Shown one piece after another: positions 8,434 through 26,754 of a stretch of DNA of 57,273 nt. The notes under the pieces are model-generated. The model saw only the letters and a program-made list of their open reading frames with translations, searched no databases and was not told the origin of the DNA. Position 1 is the first letter of the stretch; every line of letters begins with the position of its first letter. The DNA lies in assembly GCA_013138805.1 (NCBI GenBank), contig WTCA01000015.1, positions 1 through 57,273 of the forward strand, given 5' to 3'. Both the position numbers and the translations under genes were made by a program. This DNA comes from an archaeon. GTDB lineage: Archaea; EX4484-52; GLR71.

Positions 8434-8673
8434 ATGGTACATAGATTCAGGTCTGATGCACAGCGAAAGGCTGTGATGGGTAATTTTAGATCAAGATTAC
8501 CTAGGGTGGTTGTAGGAAAACATAAAGGGATTAAAGTTAGGCTTAGGTATCCTTCTGAGATGGCAGGCTATATAACCTATACTTTTGCATCCATATCGGA
8601 AGCCAATAGATATTTAGATAGTGGTTGGGTAAGTGACTGGGCTAAAAGGCGGGCAAAGATTACTAGATTATGA
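8434..8673 (+). CDS. Leader-B family protein
   Basis: N-terminus MVHRFRSDAQRKAVMGNF. 79 aa. Confidence 0.8.
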   Translation: MVHRFRSDAQRKAVMGNFRSRLPRVVVGKHKGIKVRLRYPSEMAGYITYTFASISEANRYLDSGWVSDWAKRRAKITRL

Positions 8674-8685
8674 TAAGGGGATTAT

Positions 8686-9189
8686 ATGGCGACAAGATTC
8701 ATGACTAAAGGCAAGGGCAATGGACGTAAAGTCATCCCTCTGAAGGACAGGGCATCTGTCGGGGTTAACCGACATGCTGTTAAGATACATCCTAATAATA
8801 TATCTAAGAATATATTTATATTCGGGGGTAAAGATAAAGATGGTAAAGAGATCATATATCATCTAAAAGATATGTTCTCTCCTGATGCTGTAGATATCGC
8901 AGACAGTTATCATAAGGATATTACTGGTATGGATAGGAATTTTGGTTGGGATTCTTCTGCGAGTGCGACAAAAGAATCTATATCTAGCTATTTTCCAGAT
9001 GGTGTCAGGTTTGTATCTATACCCAAAGATTATAAAGCTAAACCACATAAAAGGGATATCCTTGATGATATCATAGTATATGAATCTGGTGAGATGACTC
9101 CTGCTGAAGAATTAGCATTCTTTAAGAAGAATAAAGATATACTATCTAAGTTACAAGGACATTACGGTAGGCGTATAAGTCGTATGTGA
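8686..9189 (+). CDS. Leader-A family protein
   Basis: N-terminus MATRFMTKGKGNGRKVIPLKD. 167 aa. Confidence 0.8.
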   Translation: MATRFMTKGKGNGRKVIPLKDRASVGVNRHAVKIHPNNISKNIFIFGGKDKDGKEIIYHLKDMFSPDAVDIADSYHKDITGMDRNFGWDSSASATKESISSYFPDGVRFVSIPKDYKAKPHKRDILDDIIVYESGEMTPAEELAFFKKNKDILSKLQGHYGRRISRM

Positions 9190-9194
9190 TACTC

Positions 9195-9545
9195 ATGACA
9201 ACAAGATTCATAACAAAAGGCAAAGGTGCAGGCAGGAGAGTTATCCCTATATCTGCTTCTGTCTCTAATACTGCGCTGGCACGGGTATATAAAGAGATGG
9301 ACAAGACCTTTAAGGTAGGTAAGGAAGATGCATCACTGTATGTACATCTGAACCTTCGTAATGGAGAAGATATTGTATTGGATATCCCTAAAGAAAAGGT
9401 TGCGAAGCTATTGGCGGATATGGATACAGGTAAGTCTAAGAATGTTCTGATATTTGATGATGACTGTGCAGTCAGGATTGCAGATATAGTATCTATACAA
9501 GTAGATGATGCTGAAATGAGTGCTATAAGCCGACCTGAAGATTGA
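9195..9545 (+). CDS. Leader-A family protein
   Basis: Track ORF 9186..9545. The ATG at 9195 gives MTTRFITKGKGAGRRVIPIS. GTGATACTC precedes the ATG, as at 9569. Confidence 0.8.
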   Translation: MTTRFITKGKGAGRRVIPISASVSNTALARVYKEMDKTFKVGKEDASLYVHLNLRNGEDIVLDIPKEKVAKLLADMDTGKSKNVLIFDDDCAVRIADIVSIQVDDAEMSAISRPED

Positions 9546-9568
9546 TTGCATACTGTAAGGTGATACTC

Positions 9569-9970
9569 ATGACGACTAGATTTATGACCCAAGGCAGAGG
9601 TGCTGGCAGGAAAGTCATACCTATGAAAGGAATAGGCAATGGTTCAGTACTGCTTAAAGACATAAAGATTGATATGAGATCAGTCAAGCCTATGTCTGAG
9701 GCAGAGCAACTGTCCCGTATACGTGAACTGGTGAAGGTTCCCAAAGATAAGGATAAGCTTTGGGTCATATATGGTCAGAAAGATATGAAAAGACAGATCA
9801 ATCAGTCAGATGTATTCTTTATAGATTTCTATTTAGGAAAAGATGGTGCAAATAGATTATATACCACATATAAAGATAAGTTGCTTAAGAAATATGGTTA
9901 TGAGAGTGTAGGGGTGGCTAGAATGTTTAATTTCTATAACCCTAGATCACGTAAGTCAAAATATTTTTAG
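9569..9970 (+). CDS. Leader-A family protein
   Basis: Track ORF 9542..9970. The ATG at 9569 gives MTTRFMTQGRGAGRKVIPMKG. SD is AAGGTGA. Confidence 0.8.
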   Translation: MTTRFMTQGRGAGRKVIPMKGIGNGSVLLKDIKIDMRSVKPMSEAEQLSRIRELVKVPKDKDKLWVIYGQKDMKRQINQSDVFFIDFYLGKDGANRLYTTYKDKLLKKYGYESVGVARMFNFYNPRSRKSKYF

Positions 9971-9996
9971 TAAGCAGATGATATAGATATATTTTT

Positions 9997-10014
9997 CATG
10001 CTATCTTATAAACA
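9997..10014 (+). promoter_or_regulatory. recurrent promoter motif CATGCTATCTTATAAACA
   Basis: Exact 18-mer 34 nt upstream of the ATG at 10048. The promoter, 5' UTR and leader (about 115 bp) are duplicated at 12842-12957. Confidence 0.65.
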
Positions 10015-10047
10015 GCCTGATGCATATATCTGGTAGGGATAATCATC

Positions 10048-10617
10048 ATGACGACAGGATTCATGACAAAAGGCAGGGGTGCAGGCAGGAAAGTCATACC
10101 TATGAAAGACAGACCTGAGACTGTCGGGAAAGTCAGGGTCAAGCCTGCAACTGCCAGCCAGAGATTGATGGAAAGCATACATAAGACATGTAACGTCAGG
10201 TCTGCAGATGACCTGTATCCACATAGTGACATTTCACCTAACATGCGTATGGATAAAGATAGCGTAACTGCATATGTCAAGGATGTCAGGAAACCTATTG
10301 ATCCTCCTCATGTCCTAAAGAGGTTTCTGGATAGCATGTTCAAGAGATCTACATCCATCACAGACTTTGAGCCTGTGCCCAGATCAGTCCATCCTGAGGC
10401 TGATGCATTGATGCTGATCAATTCTGATGGCGACAGGACATTCATAGATAAGAGATACCTGAGACATGTCAAGGCTGTATTGGGTGATGATGTATATGTC
10501 CAGTTTGCAGAGAGCGATGCGCCCGTCTTCTTCGTGGACAGGAAGGACAGGGATGCTATCTTGATAGCTCCTATATTTTCTGAGGCACTGAGAAGCTATA
10601 TGTTCTCAAAGATGTAA
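10048..10617 (+). CDS. Leader-A family protein
   Basis: MTTGFMTKGRGAGRKVIPMKD. 189 aa. Confidence 0.8.
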   Translation: MTTGFMTKGRGAGRKVIPMKDRPETVGKVRVKPATASQRLMESIHKTCNVRSADDLYPHSDISPNMRMDKDSVTAYVKDVRKPIDPPHVLKRFLDSMFKRSTSITDFEPVPRSVHPEADALMLINSDGDRTFIDKRYLRHVKAVLGDDVYVQFAESDAPVFFVDRKDRDAILIAPIFSEALRSYMFSKM

Positions 10618-10625: not shown

Positions 10626-10976
10626 ATGGTACGAAGATTCAAGTCTGAGGCACAGCGCAAGGCTGTCATGAGCAAGATATCCGAAAAAGAGAGTCCGTCA
10701 TATATACCTATATTTAAGAAGGCTCTTGCTGAACATATCAGACAGAAAAAGAAGATTATAGCTGTAGTACGTAGCTCTGATGTACGGGATATGCTGGTTG
10801 AAAATATATTGCATACACCTGAGATGCAAGCTCTCATAAATGAAGATTTTGTACGGATTGAATATCAGGAATCAGATGGTCGGGTGTTCCGTGAATCTAT
10901 ACCACGGAGGCTTTTGTCTAGGACGACTGATGAGTTGATTGATTCAGGCGCAAAGTATGTCGATGTAATTAGGTGA
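10626..10976 (+). CDS. Leader-B family protein
   Basis: Track ORF 10617..10976. The ATG at 10626 gives MVRRFKSEAQRKAVMSKI. Confidence 0.8.
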   Translation: MVRRFKSEAQRKAVMSKISEKESPSYIPIFKKALAEHIRQKKKIIAVVRSSDVRDMLVENILHTPEMQALINEDFVRIEYQESDGRVFRESIPRRLLSRTTDELIDSGAKYVDVIR

Positions 10977-10981: not shown

Positions 10982-11323
10982 ATGGTATTCAAGTCTCCAG
11001 CACAACGGAAAGCTGTCATGGTCAAGCTTAAAGGCACCCGCAAGCAGAGATTGGTTGAGAGACATCTGGACAACGGTGACATAGGCTCTGCATTCGCAGA
11101 GATCATGACGCAGGCTGGGCTCAGGGACAAGAAGGCAAGAGGCATAGTGTCATCCACAGTGTTCGGCAGGGTACCTCTGGAATATCTGGACGACACCACC
11201 AGAGACTCTGCGATCAAGGGTGTCTGGAACGGTACCAACAAGCAGATGATGGCAAAGAACACAGCTAACATAGTCATCAATGAGGCTATAGCCAAGCCCA
11301 AGCCGAAAGTAAAGAAAAAATAA
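10982..11323 (+). CDS. Leader-B family protein
   Basis: Track ORF 10973..11323. The ATG at 10982 gives MVFKSPAQRKAVMVKL. SD is AGGTGA. Confidence 0.8.
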   Translation: MVFKSPAQRKAVMVKLKGTRKQRLVERHLDNGDIGSAFAEIMTQAGLRDKKARGIVSSTVFGRVPLEYLDDTTRDSAIKGVWNGTNKQMMAKNTANIVINEAIAKPKPKVKKK

Positions 11324-11334
11324 AGGTGATGATA

Positions 11335-11988
11335 ATGGTACTGAGATCTCATGTCAATATGATGCTTGCACTGGTGGTCATGCTGGTGTCCATGTCAGGC
11401 ACCAGCCTTGCATATGTTGAGCTTCTGGATTACAGCTCGTCACCGCTCATGACAGGGCACACCCTCATCCTTGTCGTGCATCAGTTCACTTTAGGATACC
11501 AGCTGTATACCAATGAGACTATAGACAACTGCACCGTCGACTACGCATATATGATATATGAGCCGTATAAGCTGACGCCGTTGACGTTCATAAGATATGA
11601 CACTGTCGTCACTGTCCTGAACAAGACTGACGTCATAGCAGACAATGTCACGTGGAACTACATAACTGTCACCCTGCCCGTCAAGGACGAGGCAGAGTCA
11701 CGGTACATAGCTGATCTTGTATGCACGGACAGCTCAGGGGACTATGTCGAGCTGGGCTGTGTATCTGGATGCCTGTTGCCTGAGACTGACGGCGTGCACA
11801 TATATGACTATACAGAACGTGAGACCACTTTCAAGAACGTGATTGCAGGGTCTGGTCTGGGCGAGATCCCTGCTGGGTTCGTGCTGGGTCTGTCTGAGAA
11901 CGTGTCGATAACCGAGGCAGTCATGCTTCTCATCATACTGGCTGTCCTGTCCACCACTGTCGTGGTAGTCAATAAGATATTTAAATAG
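11335..11988 (+). CDS. secreted protein with GLTEN-type C-terminal anchor module
   Basis: Track ORF 11326..11988. Signal peptide ends ...SGTSLAYV. C-terminus is GLGEIPAGFVLGLSENVSITEAVMLLIILAVLSTTVVVVNKIFK. Confidence 0.75.
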   Translation: MVLRSHVNMMLALVVMLVSMSGTSLAYVELLDYSSSPLMTGHTLILVVHQFTLGYQLYTNETIDNCTVDYAYMIYEPYKLTPLTFIRYDTVVTVLNKTDVIADNVTWNYITVTLPVKDEAESRYIADLVCTDSSGDYVELGCVSGCLLPETDGVHIYDYTERETTFKNVIAGSGLGEIPAGFVLGLSENVSITEAVMLLIILAVLSTTVVVVNKIFK

Positions 11989-12057: not shown

Positions 12058-12136
12058 TTATCATTGCTAAGATTTAATACAAAGTATCATTTAGTGTTCA
12101 CTGAACATATAATGATACTTGATTGAGATTGATAAT

Positions 12137-12553
12137 ATGAGAAAGAAAGTAACCACAGACATGCTTGTAGATAAGTTGCAGGCACAGTACGATGGCATGG
12201 GTCTGACCTTGCGTGAGCTGGGATCACTGCAACCATCCAAGAACCTGTCGCTGGACAGCATACCTGAATGGGGTAGGCGAAGGTTTGAGGTATGGTGCAG
12301 GATATACAATGAAGGCGGTTCTGTCTCGTTTGACAGGTTCAAGGAGATATGCATCAAGGCAGGATACAGCACTGCTGACGGTGACGGCGGACTCAAGACC
12401 AAAGGTATAGGCGGTCTGTTCTCAGGCGGAAAGAATGCTAGGATACAGTGGGGTGCCAACGGGTCTGATGTGTTCCTGACAGGCTCTGTCAAGGGCTATG
12501 TCGAGGCTTGGACTGGCTTCACCATGGATGAGGTTGCAGGGCTGTTCAAGTAG
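12137..12553 (+). CDS. hypothetical protein (no leader) inside the leader-gene array
   Basis: Track ORF 12119..12553 (TTG). The first ATG at 12137 gives MRKKVTTDML.... 138 aa. Confidence 0.6.
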   Translation: MRKKVTTDMLVDKLQAQYDGMGLTLRELGSLQPSKNLSLDSIPEWGRRRFEVWCRIYNEGGSVSFDRFKEICIKAGYSTADGDGGLKTKGIGGLFSGGKNARIQWGANGSDVFLTGSVKGYVEAWTGFTMDEVAGLFK

Positions 12554-12841: not shown

Positions 12842-12859
12842 CATGCTATCTTATAAACA
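12842..12859 (+). promoter_or_regulatory. recurrent promoter motif CATGCTATCTTATAAACA
   Basis: Exact 18-mer 34 nt upstream of the ATG at 12893. Confidence 0.65.
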
Positions 12860-12892
12860 GACCTATGCATATATCTGGTATAGATGATTATC

Positions 12893-13357
12893 ATGGCGAC
12901 TAGATTCATGACCAAAGGCAAGGGTGCAGGCAGGAAAGTCATACCTATGAAAGACAGCGATGCTACCTTGAAACTTAAAATGCCTAAAAAGGTTACACCA
13001 GCAGATATTAAGTCAAGTAAAGATATCTATGTTTTGCAGGATAAGATCAACAGCCTGATATTCGATAGGCAGAAAGGTGCAGTCGACCCAGAGATGCTAC
13101 GGATAGTCATCCTGAATGAGAAAGCATATCATTTCAGGTTCCTGAAAGGGTATACTAAATGGAAAGCCATAGGTACATGGGAGACATATCCTGATGAGAC
13201 CAATACGGTGATAGAGATCATGTACAGAGATACAGAAGATGAAAGAGTAGGCATAGAATTAGTCAAGTTATTAGAGCAGTACAATGAACTTACATCTAAG
13301 GAAGATAAATTATTTGTTGCTACATATCCTATTGAAGAGACTAGCCTGTATACATAG
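12893..13357 (+). CDS. Leader-A family protein
   Basis: Track ORF 12884..13357. The ATG at 12893 gives MATRFMTKGKGAGRKVIPMKD. Confidence 0.8.
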   Translation: MATRFMTKGKGAGRKVIPMKDSDATLKLKMPKKVTPADIKSSKDIYVLQDKINSLIFDRQKGAVDPEMLRIVILNEKAYHFRFLKGYTKWKAIGTWETYPDETNTVIEIMYRDTEDERVGIELVKLLEQYNELTSKEDKLFVATYPIEETSLYT

Positions 13358-13418: not shown

Positions 13419-14192
13419 ATGGCGACTAGATTCATGACCAAAGGCAAGGGTGATGGCAGGAAGGTCATACCTCTCAAAGGCAGGGCATCTGTCAAGGCTC
13501 CTAAGAACATGGTGCCTAAGTACAGCAAGTTACAGAAGGCTATACTGTCCCTGATGGTCGAGGATACCGGTGCTAACCTATTGGATTCAGGCGGTGCATA
13601 CGGCAGGCACTATGAACGTAACCAGCAGGTCAAGGACTGGACAGCTGTTAAGGATCTCAGCTTTGATGAATTTGGATATACACGTAACCTGTTTCCGTTC
13701 TTGGTACAACAGCTGGATATCAATCCTGAAAGCCAGAAGTTGCAGGGACAGTTTGACAGGATGTCTGCCAAGTCTGACGAGCCGTACCTGAGCGACATGG
13801 AACAGTTCTTGGAGAAGCTGGCTAAGGATGGTAGGCTGGAATCAGATGATTACTTGGTCACTGAAAAACCTACTGTGATCAATACTTACAATGCAGAGTC
13901 TGCACTGTCACAGATACTGCAATATGCCCTGTTCATGGTTGACGGTGAATATTATGTCATATTGCAGGTGCACAACGGCTGTGATGCAAGGGGTGGGTAT
14001 ACCAAGCCTAAGATATTTGCAGTGCCTGACCCTGAATCTTTTATAATCCGTCAGAACGATGCCGATGTCACCACAAAGAAAGGTACATATACGACTGATG
14101 ATACATATAATTTCTATCCTGAGTCAGGTATCTCTGGTGAGCCTAAGCAGTGGGAAGACCTGTGGAAAGAGGGTATAGTGAGGATTAATTGA
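13419..14192 (+). CDS. Leader-A family protein
   Basis: Track ORF 13410..14192. The ATG at 13419 gives MATRFMTKGKGDGRKVIPLKG. The body contains LLDSGGAYGRHYERNQ and HNGCDARGGYTKP motifs. Confidence 0.8.
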   Translation: MATRFMTKGKGDGRKVIPLKGRASVKAPKNMVPKYSKLQKAILSLMVEDTGANLLDSGGAYGRHYERNQQVKDWTAVKDLSFDEFGYTRNLFPFLVQQLDINPESQKLQGQFDRMSAKSDEPYLSDMEQFLEKLAKDGRLESDDYLVTEKPTVINTYNAESALSQILQYALFMVDGEYYVILQVHNGCDARGGYTKPKIFAVPDPESFIIRQNDADVTTKKGTYTTDDTYNFYPESGISGEPKQWEDLWKEGIVRIN

Positions 14193-14193
14193 T

Positions 14194-14967
14194 ATGACAG
14201 CAAGCTTTATCACGAGAGGCAGGGGTGCAGGCAGGAAAGTCATACCTATAGGTATAGGTATACGCAAGCCTGTGGTTGTCAGGTATGAAGGGCTGGGAAG
14301 GGTGGCTCCGTCTAAGGCATATCTTACAGATATCGTAAAAGATGATACGGAACTGGAATACCTGAGCGATATCCATGATGATATGCAGTTCATCAATAAG
14401 ATGCGAAACCTTAAGTCAAGAGTGGTCAAGGCTATAGGACAGTCTGAGTATGATAGATGGATCAAGCTGTACAATGACATTGACTCTGGAGCTTTTGACT
14501 TTGATGAGTATGTCAGGCGTAATAAGGTGCACATATCTCTCTGGAGACATATACGTCACATGAGCGATATCGAGAAGTTTGAGGCAGTGCTAAAGCATAA
14601 GAGATATAGTCCTGATATAATAAGTGATTTTACTGCTATGTATCATTACGATTTCGGGTATCATGACTTGGACGGTGTCTCACGGCTTAAGTTTTTTCAT
14701 GTCGCAAAGCTTGTATATCCGGCAGTCAGGAAATATCTTGATACTGATCTGATAGATGAGGAACCTCAATATTATTATATATCAGGCAAGCGTAGAGAAA
14801 TGTTGCATGAAAAGTTCCTAAGAGAATACAATAATAAATATGGAAACAGGGACGGGTACCAGAGAGTTGAACTGGATGCCAGTGTAGGTACCAAAGAAGG
14901 AGAACCTCCAGAAGATGAGTTTGATGCATCTTTATATGCAGGCGCTATAGCTGGAGGAGCTATCTGA
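14194..14967 (+). CDS. Leader-A family protein (body paralogous to 21275..22015 and 24001..24702)
   Basis: MTASFITRGRGAGRKVIPIG. The body aligns with the two other copies (for example DRWIKLYNDIDSGAFDFDEY vs SGWVKLMCDIDDGSFDADSF). Confidence 0.8.
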   Translation: MTASFITRGRGAGRKVIPIGIGIRKPVVVRYEGLGRVAPSKAYLTDIVKDDTELEYLSDIHDDMQFINKMRNLKSRVVKAIGQSEYDRWIKLYNDIDSGAFDFDEYVRRNKVHISLWRHIRHMSDIEKFEAVLKHKRYSPDIISDFTAMYHYDFGYHDLDGVSRLKFFHVAKLVYPAVRKYLDTDLIDEEPQYYYISGKRREMLHEKFLREYNNKYGNRDGYQRVELDASVGTKEGEPPEDEFDASLYAGAIAGGAI

Positions 14968-14986: not shown

Positions 14987-15775
14987 ATGATTAAAAGATT
15001 CATTACAAAAGGAAAAGGCAAGAGCAGGAAAGTCATACCGCTCAACGATGGAGGGGCTGGTGCCAAGGTGCCTGCAAAACGGTCTGTGAAAGCGGAAGAC
15101 TATACGGATTACAAGACGTCTAAAAGATACCTTGAGAACAAGCTGTCTGATGAGGGCGGTGACCTGTTAGGGAACCATTGGTCTATAGGTCGTACCTTTA
15201 CAGGCATCAAGTTAACCTTAGGCAATATGACCACTGCAGGCTGGTATTGGGTGGGTGAGGCTAAAGACATGGCAGGGTTTCTTGTCCGTATCATAGGTTC
15301 TAGGGTGCGCAAAGAGTTCATAGAGACCATGCGCAGGAACAATGTGGATTTCAGGAAAGTCAAGGGTGTTATGCTAAAGTCAATCTCTGAAGGTGACGGT
15401 CTGTACGAGATGACAGGCGATACTTTAAGATGGAAGTTCGGTACCACTATGCCAGAGGTTGATGAAGATACAGACTTTGATGATTTTGCGCAGGACAGAG
15501 ATGTCACGTTGACTGACGAGTTCAAGGATGAGGTCAGGGACAGGTATTATCCAGACATGCCTGACTATGATCATGTCAAGAAAAGATACATGGCAAGGTA
15601 CAAGGAAGAGATGAGAGAGGCAGTCATGGACTCTGGGTCATTTGAGGAGTTTACGGGCAAGGTGGCTGACATCCAGAAATCATTTGACTATGATATCATT
15701 GAAGATCTCAGCGAGACCATGGGTGCAGGGTTCAGGTCTGTGATGTTTGCTGTGGCAAAAGAGAGGAATATGTGA
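14987..15775 (+). CDS. Leader-A family protein
   Basis: MIKRFITKGKGKSRKVIPLND. 262 aa. Confidence 0.8.
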   Translation: MIKRFITKGKGKSRKVIPLNDGGAGAKVPAKRSVKAEDYTDYKTSKRYLENKLSDEGGDLLGNHWSIGRTFTGIKLTLGNMTTAGWYWVGEAKDMAGFLVRIIGSRVRKEFIETMRRNNVDFRKVKGVMLKSISEGDGLYEMTGDTLRWKFGTTMPEVDEDTDFDDFAQDRDVTLTDEFKDEVRDRYYPDMPDYDHVKKRYMARYKEEMREAVMDSGSFEEFTGKVADIQKSFDYDIIEDLSETMGAGFRSVMFAVAKERNM

Positions 15776-18310: not shown

Positions 18311-18727
18311 ATGACGACGACAAGATTCATGACTAAGGGACGAGGAGCATCACGCAAGGTGATACCTCTTAAGTACGGTACTGCCGTCCAGAGATATAAG
18401 AGACAGAAAGCTGTGGTCTCAGGAGACATAGAACATCTCAAGACCAATAAGGCTAAGCTCATCTCTGAGCTGGGCACTGCAAAGACACATATGATGGATG
18501 TCATGAAAGATACAGGGCATACCCTCAGACTGCTTAGGCTGGATGCTGTGCAGTTGCGGGATACCAATAAGATGGTAGTCATAGCAAAAGTTCAGAAAGG
18601 CAATGATGTGTACCATCACGTCATCGATGACGTTGTCCTGAAAGAGAAGATGCTTGCAGACGATTTTCATAGGCTCATAGAATCCATAAAGTCTAAGTAC
18701 CATAAGACCATAGAGATCTGGAGATGA
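18311..18727 (+). CDS. Leader-A family protein
   Basis: MTTTRFMTKGRGASRKVIPLKY. 138 aa. Confidence 0.8.
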   Translation: MTTTRFMTKGRGASRKVIPLKYGTAVQRYKRQKAVVSGDIEHLKTNKAKLISELGTAKTHMMDVMKDTGHTLRLLRLDAVQLRDTNKMVVIAKVQKGNDVYHHVIDDVVLKEKMLADDFHRLIESIKSKYHKTIEIWR

Positions 18728-19484: not shown

Positions 19485-19700
19485 ATGGTACGAAAATTCA
19501 GGTCGGATGCACAGCGTAAGGCTGTCATGAGCAAGGTGAAAGATAATATGAATACTGGCTCTAAGAATATAAGTGCTATAACTATAGTGCATGATAAGGT
19601 GATAATGCCTATTAGTGCTGTTGAAGAGCGTGAACGCCTCATAGCTGATGGTTATAAGGTCTTAGAGACTAAGGGCAATGTGGTATATTTATATAAGTGA
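19485..19700 (+). CDS. Leader-B family protein
   Basis: Track ORF 19476..19700. The ATG at 19485 gives MVRKFRSDAQRKAVMSKV. GTGATATCT precedes the ATG, as at 19706. Confidence 0.8.
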   Translation: MVRKFRSDAQRKAVMSKVKDNMNTGSKNISAITIVHDKVIMPISAVEERERLIADGYKVLETKGNVVYLYK

Positions 19701-19705: not shown

Positions 19706-20125
19706 ATGGTAAGAAAATTCAGGTCGGATGCACAGCGCAAGGCTGTGATGAGCAAGGTCAAGGGCAGGACGGTGACGTTCAGGGTACCTGCCAAGAAGAT
19801 CCCTGAGCATTCTGAACCTATAGATGTTGGCAGGCTGACTTTCGATAAGATGAAGACCATGTCCAGAAAGGCTGGTCTGCACTGGTTCGATAAGGATTCC
19901 ATGAGCTTCTTCAATTCCAAGTTGCATGGGACTGTATTCGTATCTCCCGCCAAGAATGTGTATTTCATATCTTCTGAGACCTTTGAGGAGGACAATCCTG
20001 ACTATCCACGAAAGTATACCATCAGGCAGTTCAATCCCAGAGACGGTTCAGTCAGTGAAGTGGGCGGGTTTCAGGCATATGATACTTTCGGTGATGCAAC
20101 TAAAGATATGGTAAGGTTAGATTGA
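19706..20125 (+). CDS. Leader-B family protein
   Basis: Track ORF 19697..20125. The ATG at 19706 gives MVRKFRSDAQRKAVMSKV. Confidence 0.8.
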   Translation: MVRKFRSDAQRKAVMSKVKGRTVTFRVPAKKIPEHSEPIDVGRLTFDKMKTMSRKAGLHWFDKDSMSFFNSKLHGTVFVSPAKNVYFISSETFEEDNPDYPRKYTIRQFNPRDGSVSEVGGFQAYDTFGDATKDMVRLD

Positions 20126-20126: not shown

Positions 20127-20579
20127 ATGGTACGAAGATTCATAACTAAAGGCAAGGGCAAGGGCAGGAAAGTCATACCTATATCTGGCAGAGCAACAGA
20201 GGTACCTGTAAAGGTCAAGCCAGACATATTGTCTAAGCCGTTCACTGAAGATATAACTTTATCAGGCAATGACTTCTTTATCGAGTATGATCCTAAGCAT
20301 AAAGGACTGTACCTGACTGAGAGGACAGACTACGTGTCTGGAGAAGATGATGAAGAAGAGATGGATGATTCATCTTATCCATATGAGACTTTTGACTTTG
20401 AACTGGTCAAGGACTCTAAGGTACTGGATAGGTTGATCAGGTCAGAGCTGGAATCGATAGTATCATCCACTGTTGTCGTGGACGGTCAGATACTGCGTGT
20501 GGACTGGTATCCTGAAGGTGAGGTGCTGGTCTTGGTATCTCTGCCTGACAACACAAAATATATATTCAAGGAAGTATAA
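20127..20579 (+). CDS. Leader-A family protein
   Basis: MVRRFITKGKGKGRKVIPISG. Note the MVRRF start, which is shared with leader B. Confidence 0.8.
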   Translation: MVRRFITKGKGKGRKVIPISGRATEVPVKVKPDILSKPFTEDITLSGNDFFIEYDPKHKGLYLTERTDYVSGEDDEEEMDDSSYPYETFDFELVKDSKVLDRLIRSELESIVSSTVVVDGQILRVDWYPEGEVLVLVSLPDNTKYIFKEV

Positions 20580-20598: not shown

Positions 20599-21258
20599 AT
20601 GGTACGAAGATTCAAGTCGGATGCACAGCGCAAGGCTGTCATGAGCAAGATAAATGATAGAGGTAGCCCTACCATCAAGTACAGGACACCTAAGAGACAT
20701 CTGGATCTGGATGTCCGTGCGTATGAACTGGGCAACCTGAGAGTGTCCAAGGGCGGTAACTTTGAGAGGTTTCTGGATAATCTGATACGGTATTATAGGT
20801 CTGACAGCAAAGGTTCTGCTGTGCTGAGACTGAACCCATCCCAACGTGAATACATAGATATGAACCTTGATTCCTATGAGCTGGGCAATCTTGAGATATC
20901 TGAGGGCGGTAACTTCAAGAACTGGTTACAGAACCTGATACAGTTTTATATGCGTGACACAGGTCAGGATAAGGAGTACATGAAAGATGTCAAGGAACAG
21001 AGGGTCAGGGTAGAACGTCGCAGGAAGGTTGAGAGAGACATAAGACCTATGCTGGACAGGTTCAAGGAGATGACCGCATCTGCACTAGACCCTGAGCATG
21101 TCAGCGGTGGCGGTCTGACAGTGACTAAGGATGGAGAACTCATAAGCATGTTGCATTACAAAGGAACCCTTATGGAGAAAGAAGCACTGGCGGTGCTGAG
21201 ACCTGCACTGGAGAAGAAGGGGCTGAAGGTCTATGAGGAAGACCTGTGGTATCCATGA
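20599..21258 (+). CDS. Leader-B family protein with internal ~45-aa duplication
   Basis: Track ORF 20590..21258. The ATG at 20599 gives MVRRFKSDAQRKAVMSKI. YELGNLRVSKGGNFERFLDNLIRYY and YELGNLEISEGGNFKNWLQNLIQFY are duplicated. Confidence 0.8.
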   Translation: MVRRFKSDAQRKAVMSKINDRGSPTIKYRTPKRHLDLDVRAYELGNLRVSKGGNFERFLDNLIRYYRSDSKGSAVLRLNPSQREYIDMNLDSYELGNLEISEGGNFKNWLQNLIQFYMRDTGQDKEYMKDVKEQRVRVERRRKVERDIRPMLDRFKEMTASALDPEHVSGGGLTVTKDGELISMLHYKGTLMEKEALAVLRPALEKKGLKVYEEDLWYP

Positions 21259-21274: not shown

Positions 21275-22015
21275 ATGATGAAGGATATGGTTAAGATGAC
21301 AGGTACAAGATTTATCACGAAAGGCAGAGGGACGGGTAGGAAAGTCATACCTATGACCAGCAAGTCCAGATCTAAGGTTCCTGCACTGGACATGTCAGAT
21401 AGGTTCTATTCAATGCCTCAGTATATATTGCACATGACCCTTGATGAAGATGAACGTATATATCTACAGAAACTGCATGAGAATTATCAGCTCCTCAATC
21501 ATCTCAGGTTGGCTAAGAGAGATCTGATAGGTCATATAGGAGATGATACATATTCTGGCTGGGTCAAGCTGATGTGTGACATAGATGACGGCTCCTTTGA
21601 TGCAGATAGTTTCCTTAAGTCCAAAGGTGCATATAGATATCATCTCTTCACAGTATCTGTCGATCATAAGTTCAGGGCTGTGCTCAGGGCACAGGGTGTA
21701 GGGGACAGGTTCATAGATGATTTCCTGTATATCTATGGACGGCATTATAAGTTTGTGGGCATAGATGGACTCAGCTATGATATCAAGTTTCCTCTAGCGC
21801 ATTACGGTGACATGATAATGACATCTATGAAACCTGCATTCAATAAGTATATTGGGATGAGTTCTATATTTTATTTTAGGGATGATGATGATTTTAAAAG
21901 ATATACTGTATTCATTGACTTATCTTTTAAGGACAGATGGAAATCTTTATCTTCAATGATGGATAAAAAGTATCATGAAGCATATAAGGATAAGAAAGGA
22001 TATCTTAAGGTATGA
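21275..22015 (+). CDS. Leader-A family protein (body paralog of 14194 and 24001 genes)
   Basis: MMKDMVKMTGTRFITKGRGTGRKVIPMTS. The start could also be 21287 or 21296. Ends KYHEAYKDKKGYLKV. Confidence 0.8.
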   Translation: MMKDMVKMTGTRFITKGRGTGRKVIPMTSKSRSKVPALDMSDRFYSMPQYILHMTLDEDERIYLQKLHENYQLLNHLRLAKRDLIGHIGDDTYSGWVKLMCDIDDGSFDADSFLKSKGAYRYHLFTVSVDHKFRAVLRAQGVGDRFIDDFLYIYGRHYKFVGIDGLSYDIKFPLAHYGDMIMTSMKPAFNKYIGMSSIFYFRDDDDFKRYTVFIDLSFKDRWKSLSSMMDKKYHEAYKDKKGYLKV

Positions 22016-22038: not shown

Positions 22039-22503
22039 ATGAAATTCGTAAACGACAGACAGCGAAAGGCTGTCATGAGCCGGCTGAGGACGTACAGGGT
22101 TCAGGTACCTGTGTATAACGAGATCGAGGTCTTGGTGAAGGCGCCGGAGGGCGATCTTGGCAAGATAATGGATAAGGCGGTCAAGCAGGCTGAGATAGAT
22201 GAGCCTAAGACACCTTGGATGTATGACGAGGACAGTGCGGACGCATCTGAATGGGATATTGTAAAGATGGAAGATAGAGATGACAATGACAGACCTGTCA
22301 GTAAAGCATATTCTGTCAAAGGACTCAAGAAAGAGTATGCTGAAGATATTGCGAAGGTAGAAGCCCGCAAGGATGTCAGCACCTCTGAGAAAGAAGATAT
22401 AAAGAAGCGACTGAAACTTCTGCTGGATACGAATATCAAGATTGTCTCAAGAGATACAGGAGATACGAAGACCAGATTGGTCTCAACAGAGGTACCGAGA
22501 TAG
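22039..22503 (+). CDS. Leader-B family protein (short leader variant)
   Basis: MKFVNDRQRKAVMSRL. SD is TAGGTGA. Confidence 0.8.
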   Translation: MKFVNDRQRKAVMSRLRTYRVQVPVYNEIEVLVKAPEGDLGKIMDKAVKQAEIDEPKTPWMYDEDSADASEWDIVKMEDRDDNDRPVSKAYSVKGLKKEYAEDIAKVEARKDVSTSEKEDIKKRLKLLLDTNIKIVSRDTGDTKTRLVSTEVPR

Positions 22504-22535: not shown

Positions 22536-23072
22536 ATGACAGGTCAGATAGGTGACTGGTTCAGTCTAGATGTAGTCAGGGCAGTCACCGAGGTGACAGG
22601 CAAGATAAGGTCTGTTGACCGTGAAGACTATGAGGAAGATAGAGAGGGGCAAGAAAGAGAAAATAAGAGGGTATGCTGGCGGATCATCACTGATGACGGC
22701 TGTGAATACATGATGTTTGAAGACATCAGGTCTGCAGAGAGGTTCACAGTATGTCATGTCAGGGAAGAGATCAGGACTGAGCCTGAGATGTTCGACCATG
22801 ACTGGCTCATCACTTTCATTGACCTGCAAGGTATCTGTGATGATCACAGGGCTGATATGGCAGACGCTGACATAGGCGGTGACCCTGTCCAGCAACTTAA
22901 TGATGCAGGGTACTACGGCGAGAACCTGACCGATATGCTAGGATCTCGGCTTGATCTTGACAGGGCATCACAGGACATGGTTGATAAGGTAGGCTACAGG
23001 CATTTCCTGACAGGCGATGTGGACAGCATCGAGGTCACTGTCAGGACAGGGCATGTAATATTGAAGGTGTAG
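22536..23072 (+). CDS. leaderless paralog of the 17548..18297 body
   Basis: SLDVVRAVTEVTGKIRSVD...CEYMMFEDIRSAERF...PEMFDHDWL aligns with DIDVVKAVTDEVGAVKSVD...KEYMLFEDKDLAKDF...PELFTRDWL. Confidence 0.75.
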   Translation: MTGQIGDWFSLDVVRAVTEVTGKIRSVDREDYEEDREGQERENKRVCWRIITDDGCEYMMFEDIRSAERFTVCHVREEIRTEPEMFDHDWLITFIDLQGICDDHRADMADADIGGDPVQQLNDAGYYGENLTDMLGSRLDLDRASQDMVDKVGYRHFLTGDVDSIEVTVRTGHVILKV

Positions 23073-23077: not shown

Positions 23078-23611
23078 ATGGTATTTAAGAACGATAGGCA
23101 GAGAAAGGCTGTCATGTGCAAGATAGGTCTTAAGCATGGCGGTAAGCTGGACAGCATGTTTGACCGGATACAGCTGGACAAGGGTACCAAGATAGAGATG
23201 GAACACACGGATGACAGGGCTGTGGCTGGGGCGATAGCCAAGGCGCACCTGATCGAGAACCCTAAATATTACCTGTACCTTGAGATGATGGAAGCGCAGA
23301 TGAAAGGCGATGCTAGGCTTGATGCCAAGATAGGCAAGGGCGACACGGTAAGGTTCCTTGACCTGTACGGACAGCTGAAGGAAGGCAAGGTCACAGGGTT
23401 CAGGACAGCCGATGACACTGACAGGACATCTGTGGTAGACATAAGGTCTGACGGCATACTGTACGGTGCGCCGAGAGAGAAGGTCATGAAGACAGGCAAT
23501 CCTCTAGGAAGCTATAAGGACTTTTCATCCTGTGTCAGTGCCAATCTGGACAAGAGAGACCCGAAAGCGTACTGCGGTGCGATCAGGCATAAGGTAGAAG
23601 GAAGGCGTTGA
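23078..23611 (+). CDS. Leader-B family protein (short leader variant)
   Basis: MVFKNDRQRKAVMCKI. The body has an EMEHTDDRAVAGAIAKAHLIENPKYYLYLEMME motif of the kind seen in some phage hypothetical proteins (recollection only). Confidence 0.8.
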   Translation: MVFKNDRQRKAVMCKIGLKHGGKLDSMFDRIQLDKGTKIEMEHTDDRAVAGAIAKAHLIENPKYYLYLEMMEAQMKGDARLDAKIGKGDTVRFLDLYGQLKEGKVTGFRTADDTDRTSVVDIRSDGILYGAPREKVMKTGNPLGSYKDFSSCVSANLDKRDPKAYCGAIRHKVEGRR

Positions 23612-23613: not shown

Positions 23614-23994
23614 ATGGCATTCAAGAATGACAGGCAGAGGAAGAAGGTCATGATGACATTGAAGTCAGGCATCAAGCCTGTGAATAGTTTTAAGGCATAT
23701 TCACCTGAACAGCTCAGGTCTAAGGCTGTCAGTGTATACATGACAGACAAGGTAGGCAGTAGTGTCATAGATGCATATCTTCAAGATAATCTTGACTTGG
23801 TCAACCATAAGGACTATGAGCTTATAACCAACCAGACCCTGTCAGGAAAACCTGTCAATGTTCTGGTCGTACTGACACAGAAAGCAGGGTATCGCATAGC
23901 TGACAGCAGGATATCTTCACAGTCTAAGATATGGGATATGAATATTACGACCATCAAAGACCTGACAGATTCAGGTTATGGATTATGGAAATGA
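23614..23994 (+). CDS. Leader-B family protein (short leader variant)
   Basis: Track ORF 23608..23994. The ATG at 23614 gives MAFKNDRQRKKVMMTL. Confidence 0.75.
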   Translation: MAFKNDRQRKKVMMTLKSGIKPVNSFKAYSPEQLRSKAVSVYMTDKVGSSVIDAYLQDNLDLVNHKDYELITNQTLSGKPVNVLVVLTQKAGYRIADSRISSQSKIWDMNITTIKDLTDSGYGLWK

Positions 23995-24000: not shown

Positions 24001-24702
24001 ATGACGACAAGGTTCATGACCAAGGGCAAAGGACAGAGCAGGAAAATCATACCTATGAAAGGTAGGCAGGAGCCAAAGCCTAAAGGTATACGTCGTGATG
24101 TATCTGAACAGTTTTATGATATCCCTAAATATATACGGGATATTACTCTTTATGAGAATGAACGAGGTTATCTTATGGCTCTGCATAAGGATAGGCAACT
24201 GCTCAATCATCTCAGGAACATACAGGCTGGGTTGATATCCAATATAGGTGCAGTTGAGTATCATAGGCTTGTCGGTCTGTATGTTGACGTGCAACTGTCT
24301 GTCTTTGACATAGGTAAATATATGCGATCAAAAGGTATACCTGCCCTTATGTATTGGTTGCTTTCAACCTCAGATAAGTTTAAGATGATGCTCAGGACAA
24401 AAGGATTGTCTGATAAAGATATATCTGATTTTATGTATCTTCATGGCAATGATTATAAGTTTACAGGTATTGACGGCAATCAATATAAGCTCAGATCTTC
24501 AATCTTCTCTAGAGATACCATTACAGAAGACATGCAACCGTCTTTTGATAGATATCTTAATATGAGAACAACATTTCCTATAGGTGTCACAAAGAGAGGT
24601 AGATATGTGAAAGATGATAAGAGGATAGACCAGCTTAAGACCCTCTCTGATAAGATCTATCATAAGGCTTATAAGGACAAGAGAGGATACCTTAAGGATT
24701 GA
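24001..24702 (+). CDS. Leader-A family protein (body paralog of 14194 and 21275 genes)
   Basis: MTTRFMTKGKGQSRKIIPMKG. Ends KIYHKAYKDKRGYLKD. Confidence 0.8.
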   Translation: MTTRFMTKGKGQSRKIIPMKGRQEPKPKGIRRDVSEQFYDIPKYIRDITLYENERGYLMALHKDRQLLNHLRNIQAGLISNIGAVEYHRLVGLYVDVQLSVFDIGKYMRSKGIPALMYWLLSTSDKFKMMLRTKGLSDKDISDFMYLHGNDYKFTGIDGNQYKLRSSIFSRDTITEDMQPSFDRYLNMRTTFPIGVTKRGRYVKDDKRIDQLKTLSDKIYHKAYKDKRGYLKD

Positions 24703-24709: not shown

Positions 24710-24985
24710 ATGACGACAAGGTTCATGACAAAGAACAAGAGACGGATACCCATCACCGACAGGTCTGCATCGCTCAAGCTCAGGGTACCCGCCCTGCCGT
24801 CATCAGGCACTGTCAAGAAGACCGTCAAGGTCAGCAAGGCTTTCGCCGGCGACAATGATTTCTGGCTGGTTCAGGAAGTGCATACTGCGGGCAAGGATGT
24901 CATAGCAGTCCCTGAATCCCAGATAGTCAAGGGGAAAGATAAGGCGGAAGCTTTGAAGAGACTGTATGAGAAACATCTGGGCTGA
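24710..24985 (+). CDS. Leader-A family protein (leader with internal deletion)
   Basis: MTTRFMTKNKRRIPITD. 91 aa. Confidence 0.7.
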   Translation: MTTRFMTKNKRRIPITDRSASLKLRVPALPSSGTVKKTVKVSKAFAGDNDFWLVQEVHTAGKDVIAVPESQIVKGKDKAEALKRLYEKHLG

Positions 24986-24996
24986 GAAGAAGTGTT

Positions 24997-25014
24997 CATG
25001 CTATCTTATATAGA
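24997..25014 (+). promoter_or_regulatory. recurrent promoter motif variant CATGCTATCTTATATAGA
   Basis: Ends 20 nt upstream of the ATG at 25035. Confidence 0.6.
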
Positions 25015-25034
25015 GAGAAAAGAAATGATTGTGT

Positions 25035-25325
25035 ATGGTACAGAAGTTCAGGTCGGATGCACAGCGCAAGACTGTGATGGCTAAGTTGGTCAGGAAAGAT
25101 AAGGTCATAAGACCTAAATCACCCGTATACAGACCATCATCTGCAGTGGCGTATATGGATACTAAGGATGGTAAGATAAAAGGTGTTGTAAAATACAATG
25201 ATTTCTATGAAAGATATAATTTGTTCATTGATGGGTCTCATTATGGTCAGTTCAAGAATTTTAATGATGGTGTTGATGAACTGAAAAGGTCGGGGTTCAA
25301 GAAGATAACGATAAGGGTACCGTGA
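25035..25325 (+). CDS. Leader-B family protein
   Basis: Track ORF 25029..25325 (TTG). The ATG at 25035 gives MVQKFRSDAQRKTVMAKL. Confidence 0.8.
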   Translation: MVQKFRSDAQRKTVMAKLVRKDKVIRPKSPVYRPSSAVAYMDTKDGKIKGVVKYNDFYERYNLFIDGSHYGQFKNFNDGVDELKRSGFKKITIRVP

Positions 25326-25330
25326 TTATC

Positions 25331-25657
25331 ATGACGACAGGATTCATAACGAAAGGAAAAGGTGCAGGCAGGAAAGTCATACCTATGTTTGACTTTCGCA
25401 AGGGCAAGGTCAAGCAGACAGTGGCAAGATCCAAGAAAGTCAAGATCAAGCCAGAGCCATGGGCTGTCATAATCGGTGAAGAGGTGAATGTCTTTGGCAG
25501 TCGCAAGGAAGCCATGGATTCTCTGGCTGACTATTCAGACACAGGTTATGTGTCTCTGGGCAAGAGACAGAAAGACGGGTCTTATGCTGTAAAGGTGCCA
25601 AGTCAGTACGGTGACGATGGGACTGCTACATTGATACTGACACCTTATGAGGAATGA
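25331..25657 (+). CDS. Leader-A family protein
   Basis: Track ORF 25322..25657. The ATG at 25331 gives MTTGFITKGKGAGRKVIPMFD. Confidence 0.8.
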   Translation: MTTGFITKGKGAGRKVIPMFDFRKGKVKQTVARSKKVKIKPEPWAVIIGEEVNVFGSRKEAMDSLADYSDTGYVSLGKRQKDGSYAVKVPSQYGDDGTATLILTPYEE

Positions 25658-25676
25658 TCTAAGAGCTGTGATTGTG

Positions 25677-25946
25677 ATGACAAGATTCAAGAGTGACAGG
25701 CAACGGAAGGCTGTGATGAGCAGGCTGTCAAGGGCTGGCATTGCAACAGGAATACATGATGATAAACCTGTTGAGTTCTCTATCGATCTGGTGCAGGCTG
25801 AGTTCATGAATGACGATACTGACATCAGCAACGTATGGGACTGGAAGAGCGGACAGAACCTGACAAGGATCATGGACGGTAGCCAGTGGGTCATAGCCAA
25901 TGTGGACAGGTACCCTGAAAGCAGTATACAGCTGATAAAGAAATGA
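25677..25946 (+). CDS. Leader-B family protein (A/B chimeric start MTRFKSD)
   Basis: Track ORF 25647..25946. The ATG at 25677 gives MTRFKSDRQRKAVMSRL. Confidence 0.75.
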   Translation: MTRFKSDRQRKAVMSRLSRAGIATGIHDDKPVEFSIDLVQAEFMNDDTDISNVWDWKSGQNLTRIMDGSQWVIANVDRYPESSIQLIKK

Positions 25947-25960
25947 TGATAGTGATATGC

Positions 25961-26449
25961 ATGACGACAGGATTCATAACGAAAGGCAGGGGTGCAGGCA
26001 GGAAGGTCATACCTATCAAGGACAGGCATACTGTCGCAGAGCCGAAAGTGACCAAGGACAAGAGCTACAATAAGGTGCTGTGGCAGGATATAGTCACCAA
26101 GGGCAGGAAGAGAGAGCCAACCGCACTGACTGGCGGTATGAACCATCTGGACGATTCTGAGATCACTACGATAGTCGCCACCATGGAGTTCTTCGATGCC
26201 ACCGACATCTGGATGAAGCAGACCGTGTTTGATCTGGGAGGCTTGCCTAGGTTCAGGGTGTTTGACTGGCTAGCCATGAATGTCATGGGCAGGAACGATG
26301 ATGACAGGCGACAGAATGAGCAGGCTCTGAAAGTGCTGGTTCATGCATGGACAAAGGCTGATGGAGATGTCAAGGGCTTCATCAGGAACCTGCGTGAAGA
26401 CGACTATGATGTTGACCGTAGCTGGGAAAAGATACAGATCGATATATGA
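25961..26449 (+). CDS. Leader-A family protein
   Basis: Track ORF 25943..26449. The ATG at 25961 gives MTTGFITKGRGAGRKVIPIKD. Confidence 0.8.
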   Translation: MTTGFITKGRGAGRKVIPIKDRHTVAEPKVTKDKSYNKVLWQDIVTKGRKREPTALTGGMNHLDDSEITTIVATMEFFDATDIWMKQTVFDLGGLPRFRVFDWLAMNVMGRNDDDRRQNEQALKVLVHAWTKADGDVKGFIRNLREDDYDVDRSWEKIQIDI

Positions 26450-26463
26450 TTCAAGTGATATGA

Positions 26464-26754
26464 ATGACAAGGTTCAAGAGTGATAGGCAGAGAAAGGCTG
26501 TCATGTCCAAGGTCAAGAACGGGCAGGGTCTGGTGTCAGCCGTCAGGAAGGCTGTCGGTCTGGAGATGTCTGCTGATGAGCGCAAGAGACTGATCAAGGC
26601 GTATGAGCGTGAGATAGAGGCTGACAAGAGGTTGATCAAGGCAGGCAAGGACTTGCCATCCACATTATTGGGCGAGGCGCTGACAGTCACTGGAAAGATC
26701 AGGCTCAGGAATGACCAGAAATTCTTGGACAGGTTGAGGAAGAAAAGAAAGTGA
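26464..26754 (+). CDS. Leader-B family protein (A/B chimeric start MTRFKSD)
   Basis: MTRFKSDRQRKAVMSKV. 96 aa with a basic tail. Confidence 0.8.
   Translation: MTRFKSDRQRKAVMSKVKNGQGLVSAVRKAVGLEMSADERKRLIKAYEREIEADKRLIKAGKDLPSTLLGEALTVTGKIRLRNDQKFLDRLRKKRK

Follow-up and report, generated by a model that had tools for sequence, protein, structure and literature searches.

Why would dozens of proteins with unrelated bodies begin with one of two short peptides? The question is raised by contig WTCA01000015.1, analysed here over its full length of 57,273 bp (hereafter the window; it is the entire NCBI contig, with locus tags GQ472_*), which is an uncharacterised mobile element, virus or plasmid. 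On its + strand, ORF listing and motif scan delimit at 8434-26754 a co-oriented and tightly packed array of accessory genes, 33 of which start with one of two N-terminal peptides, here called leader A and leader B, and three of which are leaderless. That the leaders are self-contained, portable modules of about 20 residues is well supported, and selection on them acts at the peptide level. As for their role, we infer, as we do for all that is said here about the mechanism of these tags, that they are address labels that provide dozens of accessory proteins, unrelated among themselves, with a single binding property in common; the favoured, still tentative purpose of such a label is the delivery of these proteins together with the DNA of the element.

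Two leaders exchanged among many bodies

According to a six-frame motif scan and ORF listing of the whole window, leader A stands at the start of 22 open reading frames (ORFs) and leader B at the start of 12, all on the + strand; the motif scan found no leader A or B ORF on the − strand. All but one of these 34 ORFs lie within 8434-26754, and the outlier is a leader A gene at 73-768 (MKFFTRGKGNSRKIIPV, 231 amino acids, aa) that heads a long + strand block. Both the two counts and the picture of 33 co-oriented genes with one outlier at 73 are exactly those that a sequence-only reading of the window had given. The consensus of leader A is M-x-T-R-F-[IM]-T-K-G-[KR]-G-x-G-R-K-V-I-P, and that of leader B is M-(V-R)-[RK]-F-[KR]-S-D-[AR]-Q-R-K-A-V-M, with a short form M-x-F-K-N-D-R-Q-R-K; a degenerate DNA pattern of leader A has 17 matches in the window and none in 100 shuffles. 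The leader-bearing products have 71-262 aa, and in whole-protein alignments conservation is confined to the first ~18 residues. Clustering of the leader-trimmed bodies gave two sets of paralogues within the window, 14194/21296/24001 and 17548/22536, in line with the earlier statement that such sets are few.

Regarding the relation of leaders to bodies, the leader-trimmed bodies of the window and of related loci were clustered and then aligned pairwise, which revealed that homologous bodies can carry different leaders. The gene at 25331-25657 (108 aa) has leader A, and its homologue L013:11170, in the related contig L013, has leader B; their bodies are 62% identical. The body family of the gene at 16314-16829 (171 aa) has leader A in the window and in L013, and leader B in the unrelated element L017 (L017:10390). 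A third family, that of the gene at 19706-20125 (139 aa), with L013 members assigned to Pfam DUF7447, has leader B in the window and both leaders in L013, where a 56%-identical body (DUF7447 on record) follows leader A; the A and B sequences of this family split right after a common M-V-R-K-F and converge again at ...VTFRVPAK. Finally, one body occurs with leader A (17548-18297, 249 aa) and without any leader (22536-23072), and the same pairing is present in the window and in L013.

Further evidence comes from the protein at 13419-14192 (257 aa, NOQ37574.1), whose body represents a widespread phage family, phrog_11344. It has 236 homologues at E ≤ 1e-5, including mycobacteriophage, Gordonia phage and Methanobacterium virus proteins; leader A is found only in the four closest of 61 aligned members, which belong to related elements, and the others begin with the body. 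The earlier description of a constant peptide on unrelated bodies is upheld by these results: the bodies fall into many families, and a single family may have leader A, leader B or none. No association of a leader always with the same body was found, as would be expected of a single domain family, and leader plus body do not make up one ordinary domain family.

Start sites, codons and predicted shape

As for the point at which translation begins, 30 of the 34 leader ATGs have a Shine-Dalgarno (SD)-like match of at least 4 nucleotides (nt) within the 18 nt upstream, whereas among all ATGs of the region the share is 43%; these SD-like elements are of the GTGAT/GGTGA type. An exhaustive profile search over 1.84 billion representative proteins (cut-off E ≤ 0.001) returned 49 protein matches, about 12 of which are the window's own and about 37 from elsewhere; all but one of the 49 have the start of the leader no later than residue six. 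Given the SD-like matches and the public gene calls of the relatives, which begin at the same leader residues, translation very likely starts at the leaders and not downstream of them.

The codons used for the leaders reveal selection at the peptide level. Each of the invariant positions (T, G, R, S, V and P) is encoded by 3-6 synonymous codons: all four Thr codons are used, the two invariant Gly are written with three to four codons within the window and with all four once the relatives are included, six codons of both families (CGN and AGR) encode the invariant Arg of leader B, and Ser is encoded by both TCN and AGY. Skew is seen at some positions, with ATA in 34 of 41 cases, CCT in 35 of 41 and GCT in 18 of 20. 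The same leader peptides are encoded in loci of 32%, 40%, 45%, 64% and 72.5% GC, and this range, together with the free choice of synonymous codons, rules out a repeat at the DNA or RNA level as the main cause. Explanations at the RNA level were rejected, as no Rfam family occurs in the window and the synonymous diversity argues against them; a scan of the array for bacterial promoters and terminators gave no result above shuffles.

These data bear on two other accounts of the leaders. In the first, which is improbable, the initial ~20 codons or residues would be an expression device that ensures initiation, early elongation or a common translational control of captured genes, new genes being taken up in frame behind a resident start in a tightly packed operon. 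The spacing of the array genes, 1-23 nt for most, with an SD-like element of their own for each, the codon skew just given, and the junction of the leader swap after MVRKF, which resembles an in-frame replacement, agree with this account; however, synonymous variation and the conservation of the peptide over 32% to 72% GC are at odds with an RNA-level element, eighteen constrained residues with a predicted fold exceed the needs of early elongation, and leaderless genes stand within the same operon. In the second account, the shared N-termini would be functionless, a neutral relic of tandem duplication or gene conversion. Some similarity at the DNA level among the copies, and the near-identical upstream regions at 9997 and 12842, point that way, but the bodies are unrelated and have homologues elsewhere without a leader, the synonymous codons are diverse, and the peptides are conserved across distant elements and GC contents, so that this account is essentially refuted.

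Regarding shape, the only full-length model with leader A is the AlphaFold2 model of the 13419 protein, built on the 61-sequence alignment. It has leader A as a β-hairpin, with strands at residues 5-8 and 15-18 and a predicted local distance difference test (pLDDT) score of 60-72, followed by a linker of low confidence (residues 19-36, pLDDT ~57) and by a body with pLDDT >90; the mean over the whole model is 89.6. Leader A is predicted to be a basic β-hairpin, made of RF[IM]TK, a G-rich turn and RKVIP. The AlphaFold2 model of leader B, from the 12 window copies, has an extended start and then a helix at residues 8-20 (pLDDT ~80), which is basic and amphipathic (DxQRKAVMxK). The net charge of the leaders is +3 to +7, and the 20 residues behind them (residues 20-40) are rich in K, V, S and P and mostly positive, with 17% K behind leader A. 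Many of the bodies that follow leader A are net acidic, down to −46 in the protein at 17548-18297, and those that follow leader B are near neutral. As modelled, the design of the proteins is thus a tag, a flexible basic linker and an independent body.

Neither peptide matched a family described so far, and the sequence-only reading had not recognised one either. Among Pfam, NCBIfam and PHROGs models run on all 34 leader proteins, none covers either leader, and the only matches are isolated ones to bodies: DUF7447, DUF5661, phrog_11344, phrog_4655 and a weak DUF7417/phrog_3908. A PDB profile search with the leader A alignment gave no match at E ≤ 10, PDB sequence searches of four bodies gave none, and the 13419 model compared with the PDB by Foldseek gave 0 matches at E ≤ 0.001. 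In the full-text literature searched, no paper contains the motif strings or such arrays, and a paper on the ANME-1 virome mentions nothing similar. A common origin of the two leaders was rejected, since hhalign of their alignments shows no relationship; by eye, only the start M-x-[RK]-[RK]-F is common to both.

Leader A resembles the first hairpin of SpoVT/AbrB in its G-R-x-V-I-P-I-x-x-R string and predicted β-hairpin, whereas the second hairpin and the helix of that domain (~45 residues, two hairpins and a helix) are absent. Homology was rejected: on AbrB sequences, the leader profile scored 4-5 bits over 6-10 residues, and the SpoVT/AbrB profile (PF04014) had no Pfam match at E ≤ 0.1 in the 22 proteins. 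The likeness is treated as chance or convergent.

The leaders do not look like export signals either. Neither the Tat motif S/T-R-R-x-F-L-K nor a class III site, [KR]G|[FAL], is present in the leader alignments, in agreement with the earlier view that these are not Sec, Tat or class III signals. That view had added that no hydrophobic region follows the leaders, which holds for the array in general, where the residues are K/V/S/P-rich and charged, and fails for one gene: the Sec/Tat-type stretch of ~10-20 hydrophobic residues is missing after all leaders except that of the protein at 17258-17530.

Carriers elsewhere and the proposed role of the leaders

Arrays with both leaders, similar to that of the window, occur in at least three related elements, most of the relatives being known from fragments only. 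L013, a 23.5-kb Logan contig (SRR3715698), has a syntenic array of 15 leader A and 8 leader B genes, and this array, like that of the window, ends a few kb upstream of an ArdC gene. L014/L015, cold-seep contigs of 38 and 56.8 kb, have 11 leader A and 10 leader B genes, with an SNF2 helicase within the array and ArdC downstream; in L001, five to six tagged genes stand beside a D5-type primase-helicase and an MT-A70 methylase. The relatives closest to the window were sampled at the Site-F cold seep of the South China Sea (PMC9357000; samples SRR13892600). Relatives available as complete contigs are ERZ23498665 scaffold_260 (56.8 kb), IMGVR_UViG_3300045922_001059 (56.4 kb) and the Thaumarchaeota contig JAEHJW020001806.1.

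As for leader B alone, 13 consecutive genes of L017, which start with MRFK[SN]DRQRKAVMA, and nine or ten of L016 bear it; both are small AT-rich elements with a Zot-like ATPase. It is also found in a tailed bacteriophage, L018/L021, an IMG/VR contig of 72.5% GC (IMGVR_UViG_3300045922_001059), where at least eight consecutive, co-oriented leader B genes (L021 1004-11871) stand directly upstream of the terminase large subunit gene, with the major capsid protein further on. The L021 copy FATDAQRRAFFA and the L014 copy QQQRAMF suggest that leader B, judged by sequence, belongs to a broader motif class, [ST]-x-x-Q-[QR]-[RK]-A-[VMF]-[MF].

Variants of leader A (MTEFFTRGKGENRKVIPI and similar) head three genes of an element integrated in a Thaumarchaeota metagenome-assembled genome (MAG; L003/L011), which also encodes an integrase, an HNH protein and a fusion of a methylase with Mrr; of the three tagged proteins, one is ArdC-like, with an HExxH zincin motif. 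Other variants occur in L006, on an ArdC-like protein that likewise has the HExxH motif, and in L007, on an HExxH protein. The short metagenome contigs L008 (437-) and L012 (465-) have, behind leader A, ~60 aa extremely rich in K, R and P, and then a conserved small domain; the K/R/P-rich stretch resembles a histone H1 tail. In IMG/VR, the strict leader A pattern had no match, and a looser one had a single internal and doubtful match, the leader-A-like string AFFTQGSGSSRKVIPI at L020 3581-3621 (IMGVR_UViG_3300034061_006808), a viral contig, where it lies inside a coiled-coil-rich protein of >690 aa. The match may be due to chance, or the protein may be a polyprotein-like virion component that contains the motif internally.

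What, then, could the common property of the tagged proteins be? The favoured reading, to which we assign a probability of roughly 40%, is co-delivery. The tag would bind the genome of the element, or the particle or transfer assembly during its formation; the tagged proteins would travel with the DNA into the next cell and act at entry, in anti-restriction or host take-over. The strategy would be that of the T4 internal proteins, the anti-restriction proteins Dar of phage P1, and the polyvalent proteins of phages and conjugative elements, but with each cargo as a separate tagged gene.

Five observations favour this reading: tagged ArdC-like zincin proteins exist in other elements; an ArdC gene lies near the array in three elements; a promoter-like repeat, CATGCTATCTTATAAACAG, is common to the array and to glycoprotein genes, which suggests co-expression; the body of the 23078 protein ends in a mini-domain that starts the HFTV1 scaffolding/protease protein; and many bodies are acidic, as are DNA-mimic anti-restriction proteins. 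The tagged ArdC-like proteins, the acidic bodies and the shared promoter motif also give circumstantial hints, at the level of sequence, that the bodies may be anti-defence effectors. ArdC-like proteins are the archetype of proteins that travel with the DNA, according to passages of bioRxiv 10.1101/361121 and PMC5512222.

The repeat CATGCTATCTTATAAACAG occurs six times in the window, against 0.04 expected, 38-51 nt 5' of start codons and with a TATA-like box inside. The + strand copies at 8383-8401 (51 nt 5' of the first array gene), 9997-10015, 12842-12860 and 24997-25015 precede four sub-operons of the array, and the − strand copies at 45495-45477 and 47036-47018 precede two surface-glycoprotein genes; it is probably a promoter of the element. 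As for the mini-domain, it makes up the C-terminal 36 aa (23501-23611) of the leader B protein at 23078-23611 (177 aa, short variant), which aligns to the DUF5661-bearing orthologues L013:7625 and L016:11099, and it reads [YF]-x-D-F-x-x-C-V-x-x-N-x-D-K-x-D-P-x-A-Y-C-x-x-I. It is also found at the extreme N-terminus of gp17, the scaffolding/protease protein of HFTV1 (Haloferax tailed virus 1; L022 2498-2608), at the N-terminus of Halorubrum tailed virus proteins, and alone behind leader B in P0060; from its sequence, this two-Cys domain appears to be a mobile module.

Other observations weigh against co-delivery. The array resembles a block of early or accessory genes, for which packaging would not be needed, and the ArdC gene of the window itself, which lies downstream of the array as in L013 and L014, is leaderless. 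Pfam and PHROGs recognised no capsid, portal, terminase, prohead protease, secretion or conjugation gene in the window. In the sequences compared, no element-encoded receptor of the tags appears evident, and BLASTP found no non-cargo gene common to the different element families, mostly fragments being compared. The leader alignments have no conserved cleavage motif downstream of either leader. Finally, leader B of L021 is found on a sigma-70 factor (Pfam regions 2 and 4), on a P-loop NTPase and on proteins with multiple transmembrane (TM) segments, for which packaging is not obviously needed.

Some of these points lead to the main rival of co-delivery, an intracellular tether, which we regard as unlikely: the basic tags would bind a universal polyanion or hub (DNA, RNA, ribosome or Hsp70-type chaperone), and would thereby gather the accessory proteins there or around the replicating genome, packaging playing no part. 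The presence of the tags in probable archaeal elements and in a bacteriophage with sigma-70 implies that the partner is universal or absent, and the BLASTP comparison gave no element-encoded partner in common. Moreover, tag and linker are strongly basic in most proteins, the leader A of L008 and L012 is followed by the very lysine-rich ~60 aa, and both leaders are hydrophobic cores with basic flanks and may in this respect resemble chaperone-binding motifs. Against a tether, the D5 primase, SNF2 helicase, Dam, MT-A70 and topoisomerase-like proteins of the same elements are untagged, the strict invariance of G, P, Q and M exceeds what charge-driven binding needs, and the leaders have no significant similarity to any nucleic-acid-binding domain.

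The zincins near the arrays raise another alternative, in which the leaders would be recognised by a protease or unfoldase (of the host, or a zincin of the element) and give the proteins a common, timed lifetime or maturation. The extreme N-terminal position of the leader in 48 of the 49 database representatives is consistent with such a turnover or processing tag, as is the presence, in the window, L013 and L014, of an ArdC-type MPTase zincin downstream of the array; passages of PMC5512222 propose that MPTases process co-delivered proteins. With no conserved cleavage motif at the boundary of leader and linker, no such zincin in L016, L017 and the part of L021 read, and two structurally different tags that would need two modes of recognition, this alternative is quite improbable.

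Regarding known systems, there is precedent for diverse cargo that carries a common targeting peptide, and the two tags themselves are undescribed as far as Pfam, NCBIfam, PHROGs, the PDB and the searchable literature show. The capsid-targeting sequence (CTS) of phage T4 is a short N-terminal peptide that marks IPI-III and Alt, otherwise unrelated anti-defence proteins co-injected with the DNA; only a few proteins carry it, it attaches to the prohead scaffold, and the prohead protease removes it at an L/I-x-E site. Passages of PMC5512222 mention Alt and IPI of T4. The leaders are likewise short N-terminal peptides on unrelated proteins, and leader B is modelled as a short amphipathic helix, a shape that the CTS also has; in contrast, the array has 33 genes and two unrelated tags, with no sequence similarity to the CTS. 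Nor do the leader alignments contain a conserved acidic cleavage motif after VIP[LMI] or KAVMxK, and no HK97-fold capsid or other part of a procapsid with scaffold and protease was found in the window by Pfam and PHROGs; L021 has a terminase and a capsid protein.

The comparison with P1 Dar and polyvalent proteins rests on the diverse accessory or anti-defence activities that a mobile element deploys together. Polyvalent proteins unite 2-15 disparate domains in one polypeptide, commonly with an MPTase, in passages of Iyer et al. 2017 (PMC5512222). ArdC-N and MPTase are present in the window and its relatives, and ArdC-like or zincin proteins have leader A in other elements; the leaderless ArdC-like protein of the window (ArdC-N plus MPTase-PolyVal zincin, 31337-32209, + strand) is the minimal two-domain polyvalent form. 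Here, in contrast, each activity would reside in a small, separately tagged gene: the array proteins have 71-262 aa and at most one family match each.

Two further systems share the combination of a constant start and a variable remainder. The payload signals of contractile injection systems, the MIX of type VI secretion systems (T6SS) and the markers of polymorphic toxins have 50 to several hundred residues and lie beside sheath, tube, baseplate, VgrG or PAAR genes. They resemble the present case in having a constant N-terminal module, variable C-terminal cargo and clustered cargo genes, and differ from it in length, the tags here having ~20 residues; none of the sheath, tube, baseplate, VgrG or PAAR genes is among the larger ORFs of the window. 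Arrays of ribosomally synthesised and post-translationally modified peptides (RiPPs) also have many tandem genes with a conserved leader and a divergent remainder. RiPP precursors, such as the prochlorosins, have longer leaders and short cores modified by a linked enzyme, whereas the bodies here have ~50-240 aa, one modelled body folds confidently, and some have leaderless phage homologues; no RiPP-modifying enzyme was found in the window.

Compared with these systems, what appears new is the interchangeability of the tags, their scale (most genes of an 18-kb array) and their spread over probable archaeal elements and a bacteriophage. The arrays of leader B in a tailed bacteriophage and in AT-rich elements, and leader A on Thaumarchaeota ArdC-like proteins, suggest a principle that crosses host domains. 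In its widest form, which is possible and still rather unlikely, archaeal and bacterial viruses and plasmids would share a minimal address-tag system, a β-hairpin or helix that can be grafted on any protein and routes whole arsenals to one destination; the most exciting case would be co-delivery, with the particle or the genome as that destination. Should the tags be address labels, they identify at once the full set of proteins co-deployed by an uncultivated element, ~33 here and dozens in the relatives, almost all without known fold or function, and would allow such proteins to be recognised in metagenomes by a simple criterion of sequence. In its widest form, the system would do for viruses what secretion signals do for cells and would offer a means of bringing cargo into such particles, and a 20-residue tag that works on many bodies would be potentially useful for loading or localising cargo. 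Even as a tether, degron or expression device, an invariant peptide on dozens of unrelated proteins points to a strongly selected interaction.

The element and its gene content

The element that carries the array is likely an archaeal virus, and its host is likely archaeal because of the MAG label ('archaeon'), the GTGAT/GGTGA ribosome-binding sites and the TATA-like repeats ~50 nt upstream of starts. No tRNA was found in the window, and the contig has no terminal repeats. Deposited phage and archaeal-virus genomes have no DNA match to the array and no protein match to the ATPase or to a 300-aa protein of the window; the leader peptides as tblastn queries also had no match among deposited viruses, a search that is insensitive for such short queries. 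The window also encodes a Dam-type methylase, YopX, GNAT, a topoisomerase-like PHROG and a P-loop NTPase, and its − strand, at 43.9-57.1 kb, encodes a block of large proteins that begin with a hydrophobic segment, are rich in N-x-S/T sites and have Ig/PKD-like matches.

As for the array itself, it opens with a leader B gene at 8434-8673 (79 aa), followed by leader A genes at 8686-9189 (167 aa, with the weak DUF7417/phrog_3908 match at its C-terminus), 9195-9545 (116 aa), 9569-9970 (133 aa) and 10048-10617 (189 aa), and by leader B genes at 10626-10976 (116 aa) and 10982-11323 (113 aa); the last has the short variant MVFKSPAQRKAVM, and its L014 orthologue the variant MTRQQQRAMFRRF. Next come two of the three leaderless genes of the array interior, the third being 22536-23072: the gene at 11326-11988 encodes a membrane protein with a C-terminal GEIPAGFVLGLSEN and a TM anchor, and that at 12119-12553 encodes 144 aa conserved in L014. 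Around the 13419, 16314 and 17548 genes already described, leader A heads the genes at 12893-13357 (154 aa), 14194-14967 (257 aa, paralogue of 21296 and 24001), 14987-15775 (262 aa), 15786-16301 (171 aa), 16835-17242 (135 aa) and 18311-18727 (138 aa).

Three copies of leader A are degenerate. The first, at 17258-17530 (90 aa), precedes the signal-like hydrophobic stretch mentioned above and a C-terminal anchor motif; the second, MTRFITVTGKAGRRAVPI, is at 18733-19479 (248 aa); and the third, the truncated MTTRFMTKNKRRIPITD at 24710-24985 (91 aa), recurs as the same variant in L013:8500. The leader A gene at 20127-20579 (150 aa) has a B-like start, MVRRFITKGKG, and that at 21296-22015 (239 aa) has other in-frame ATGs at 21275 and 21287; the remaining leader A genes are at 24001-24702 (233 aa) and 25961-26449 (162 aa). 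In the same part of the array, besides the 19706 and 23078 genes, leader B heads those at 19485-19700 (71 aa, NOQ37584.1), 20599-21258 (219 aa), 22039-22503 (154 aa, short variant MKFVNDRQRKAVM), 23614-23994 (126 aa, short variant), 25035-25325 (96 aa), 25677-25946 (89 aa) and 26464-26754 (96 aa), the last gene of the array. GC skew is ~+0.2 on the coding strand of the + strand blocks (window 1-27000 and 30000-42000) and ~0 or negative in the − strand blocks; all 33 array genes have the positive bias.

At the other end of the proteins, a C-terminal module, K-[AV]-[IL]-G-E-[ILV]-P-[AS]-G-x-[IV]-L-G-[LMV]-[TS]-E-N, followed by a TM helix and a basic tail, is present in seven proteins: at 11851-11988 and 17399-17530 on the + strand, at the C-termini of the − strand genes 43896-45446, 45494-46987 and 47035-48324, and in two small − strand ORFs near 43.1-43.6 kb. 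By its sequence it may be a second shared terminal module, serving as a membrane or particle anchor or as a glycoprotein sorting signal; to our knowledge, it is not a known sorting signal of the PGF-CTERM type.

Upstream of the array, three small Cys-rich paralogues on the + strand (4696-4872, 4961-5215 and 7944-8207) have in common a lipobox-like [LVM]-x-S-G-C, where the mature part would start, and the motifs S-C/D-C/Y-E-C-Y, and may be secreted or lipid-anchored. Low-complexity linkers are typical of the element, namely EP/KP runs and (S/E/P/V) repeats such as PEPKPKPKP, EPEPEPEP and SEPVSEPVSEP; such runs or repeats are found in the mutually unrelated proteins at 2432-3979, 7700-7947, 28471-28950 (− strand), 34289-35551 and 42380-42424. 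Finally, the + strand genes at 33572-34288 and 34289-35551 are tandem paralogues with a common N-terminal M-[KR]-F-[LI]-F-[HN]-L-...-T-A-D-[ED]-L-[VI]-x-I-L-S and a C-terminal KKKFGVD[IM]T region, and a relative of theirs is found at the end of L014.

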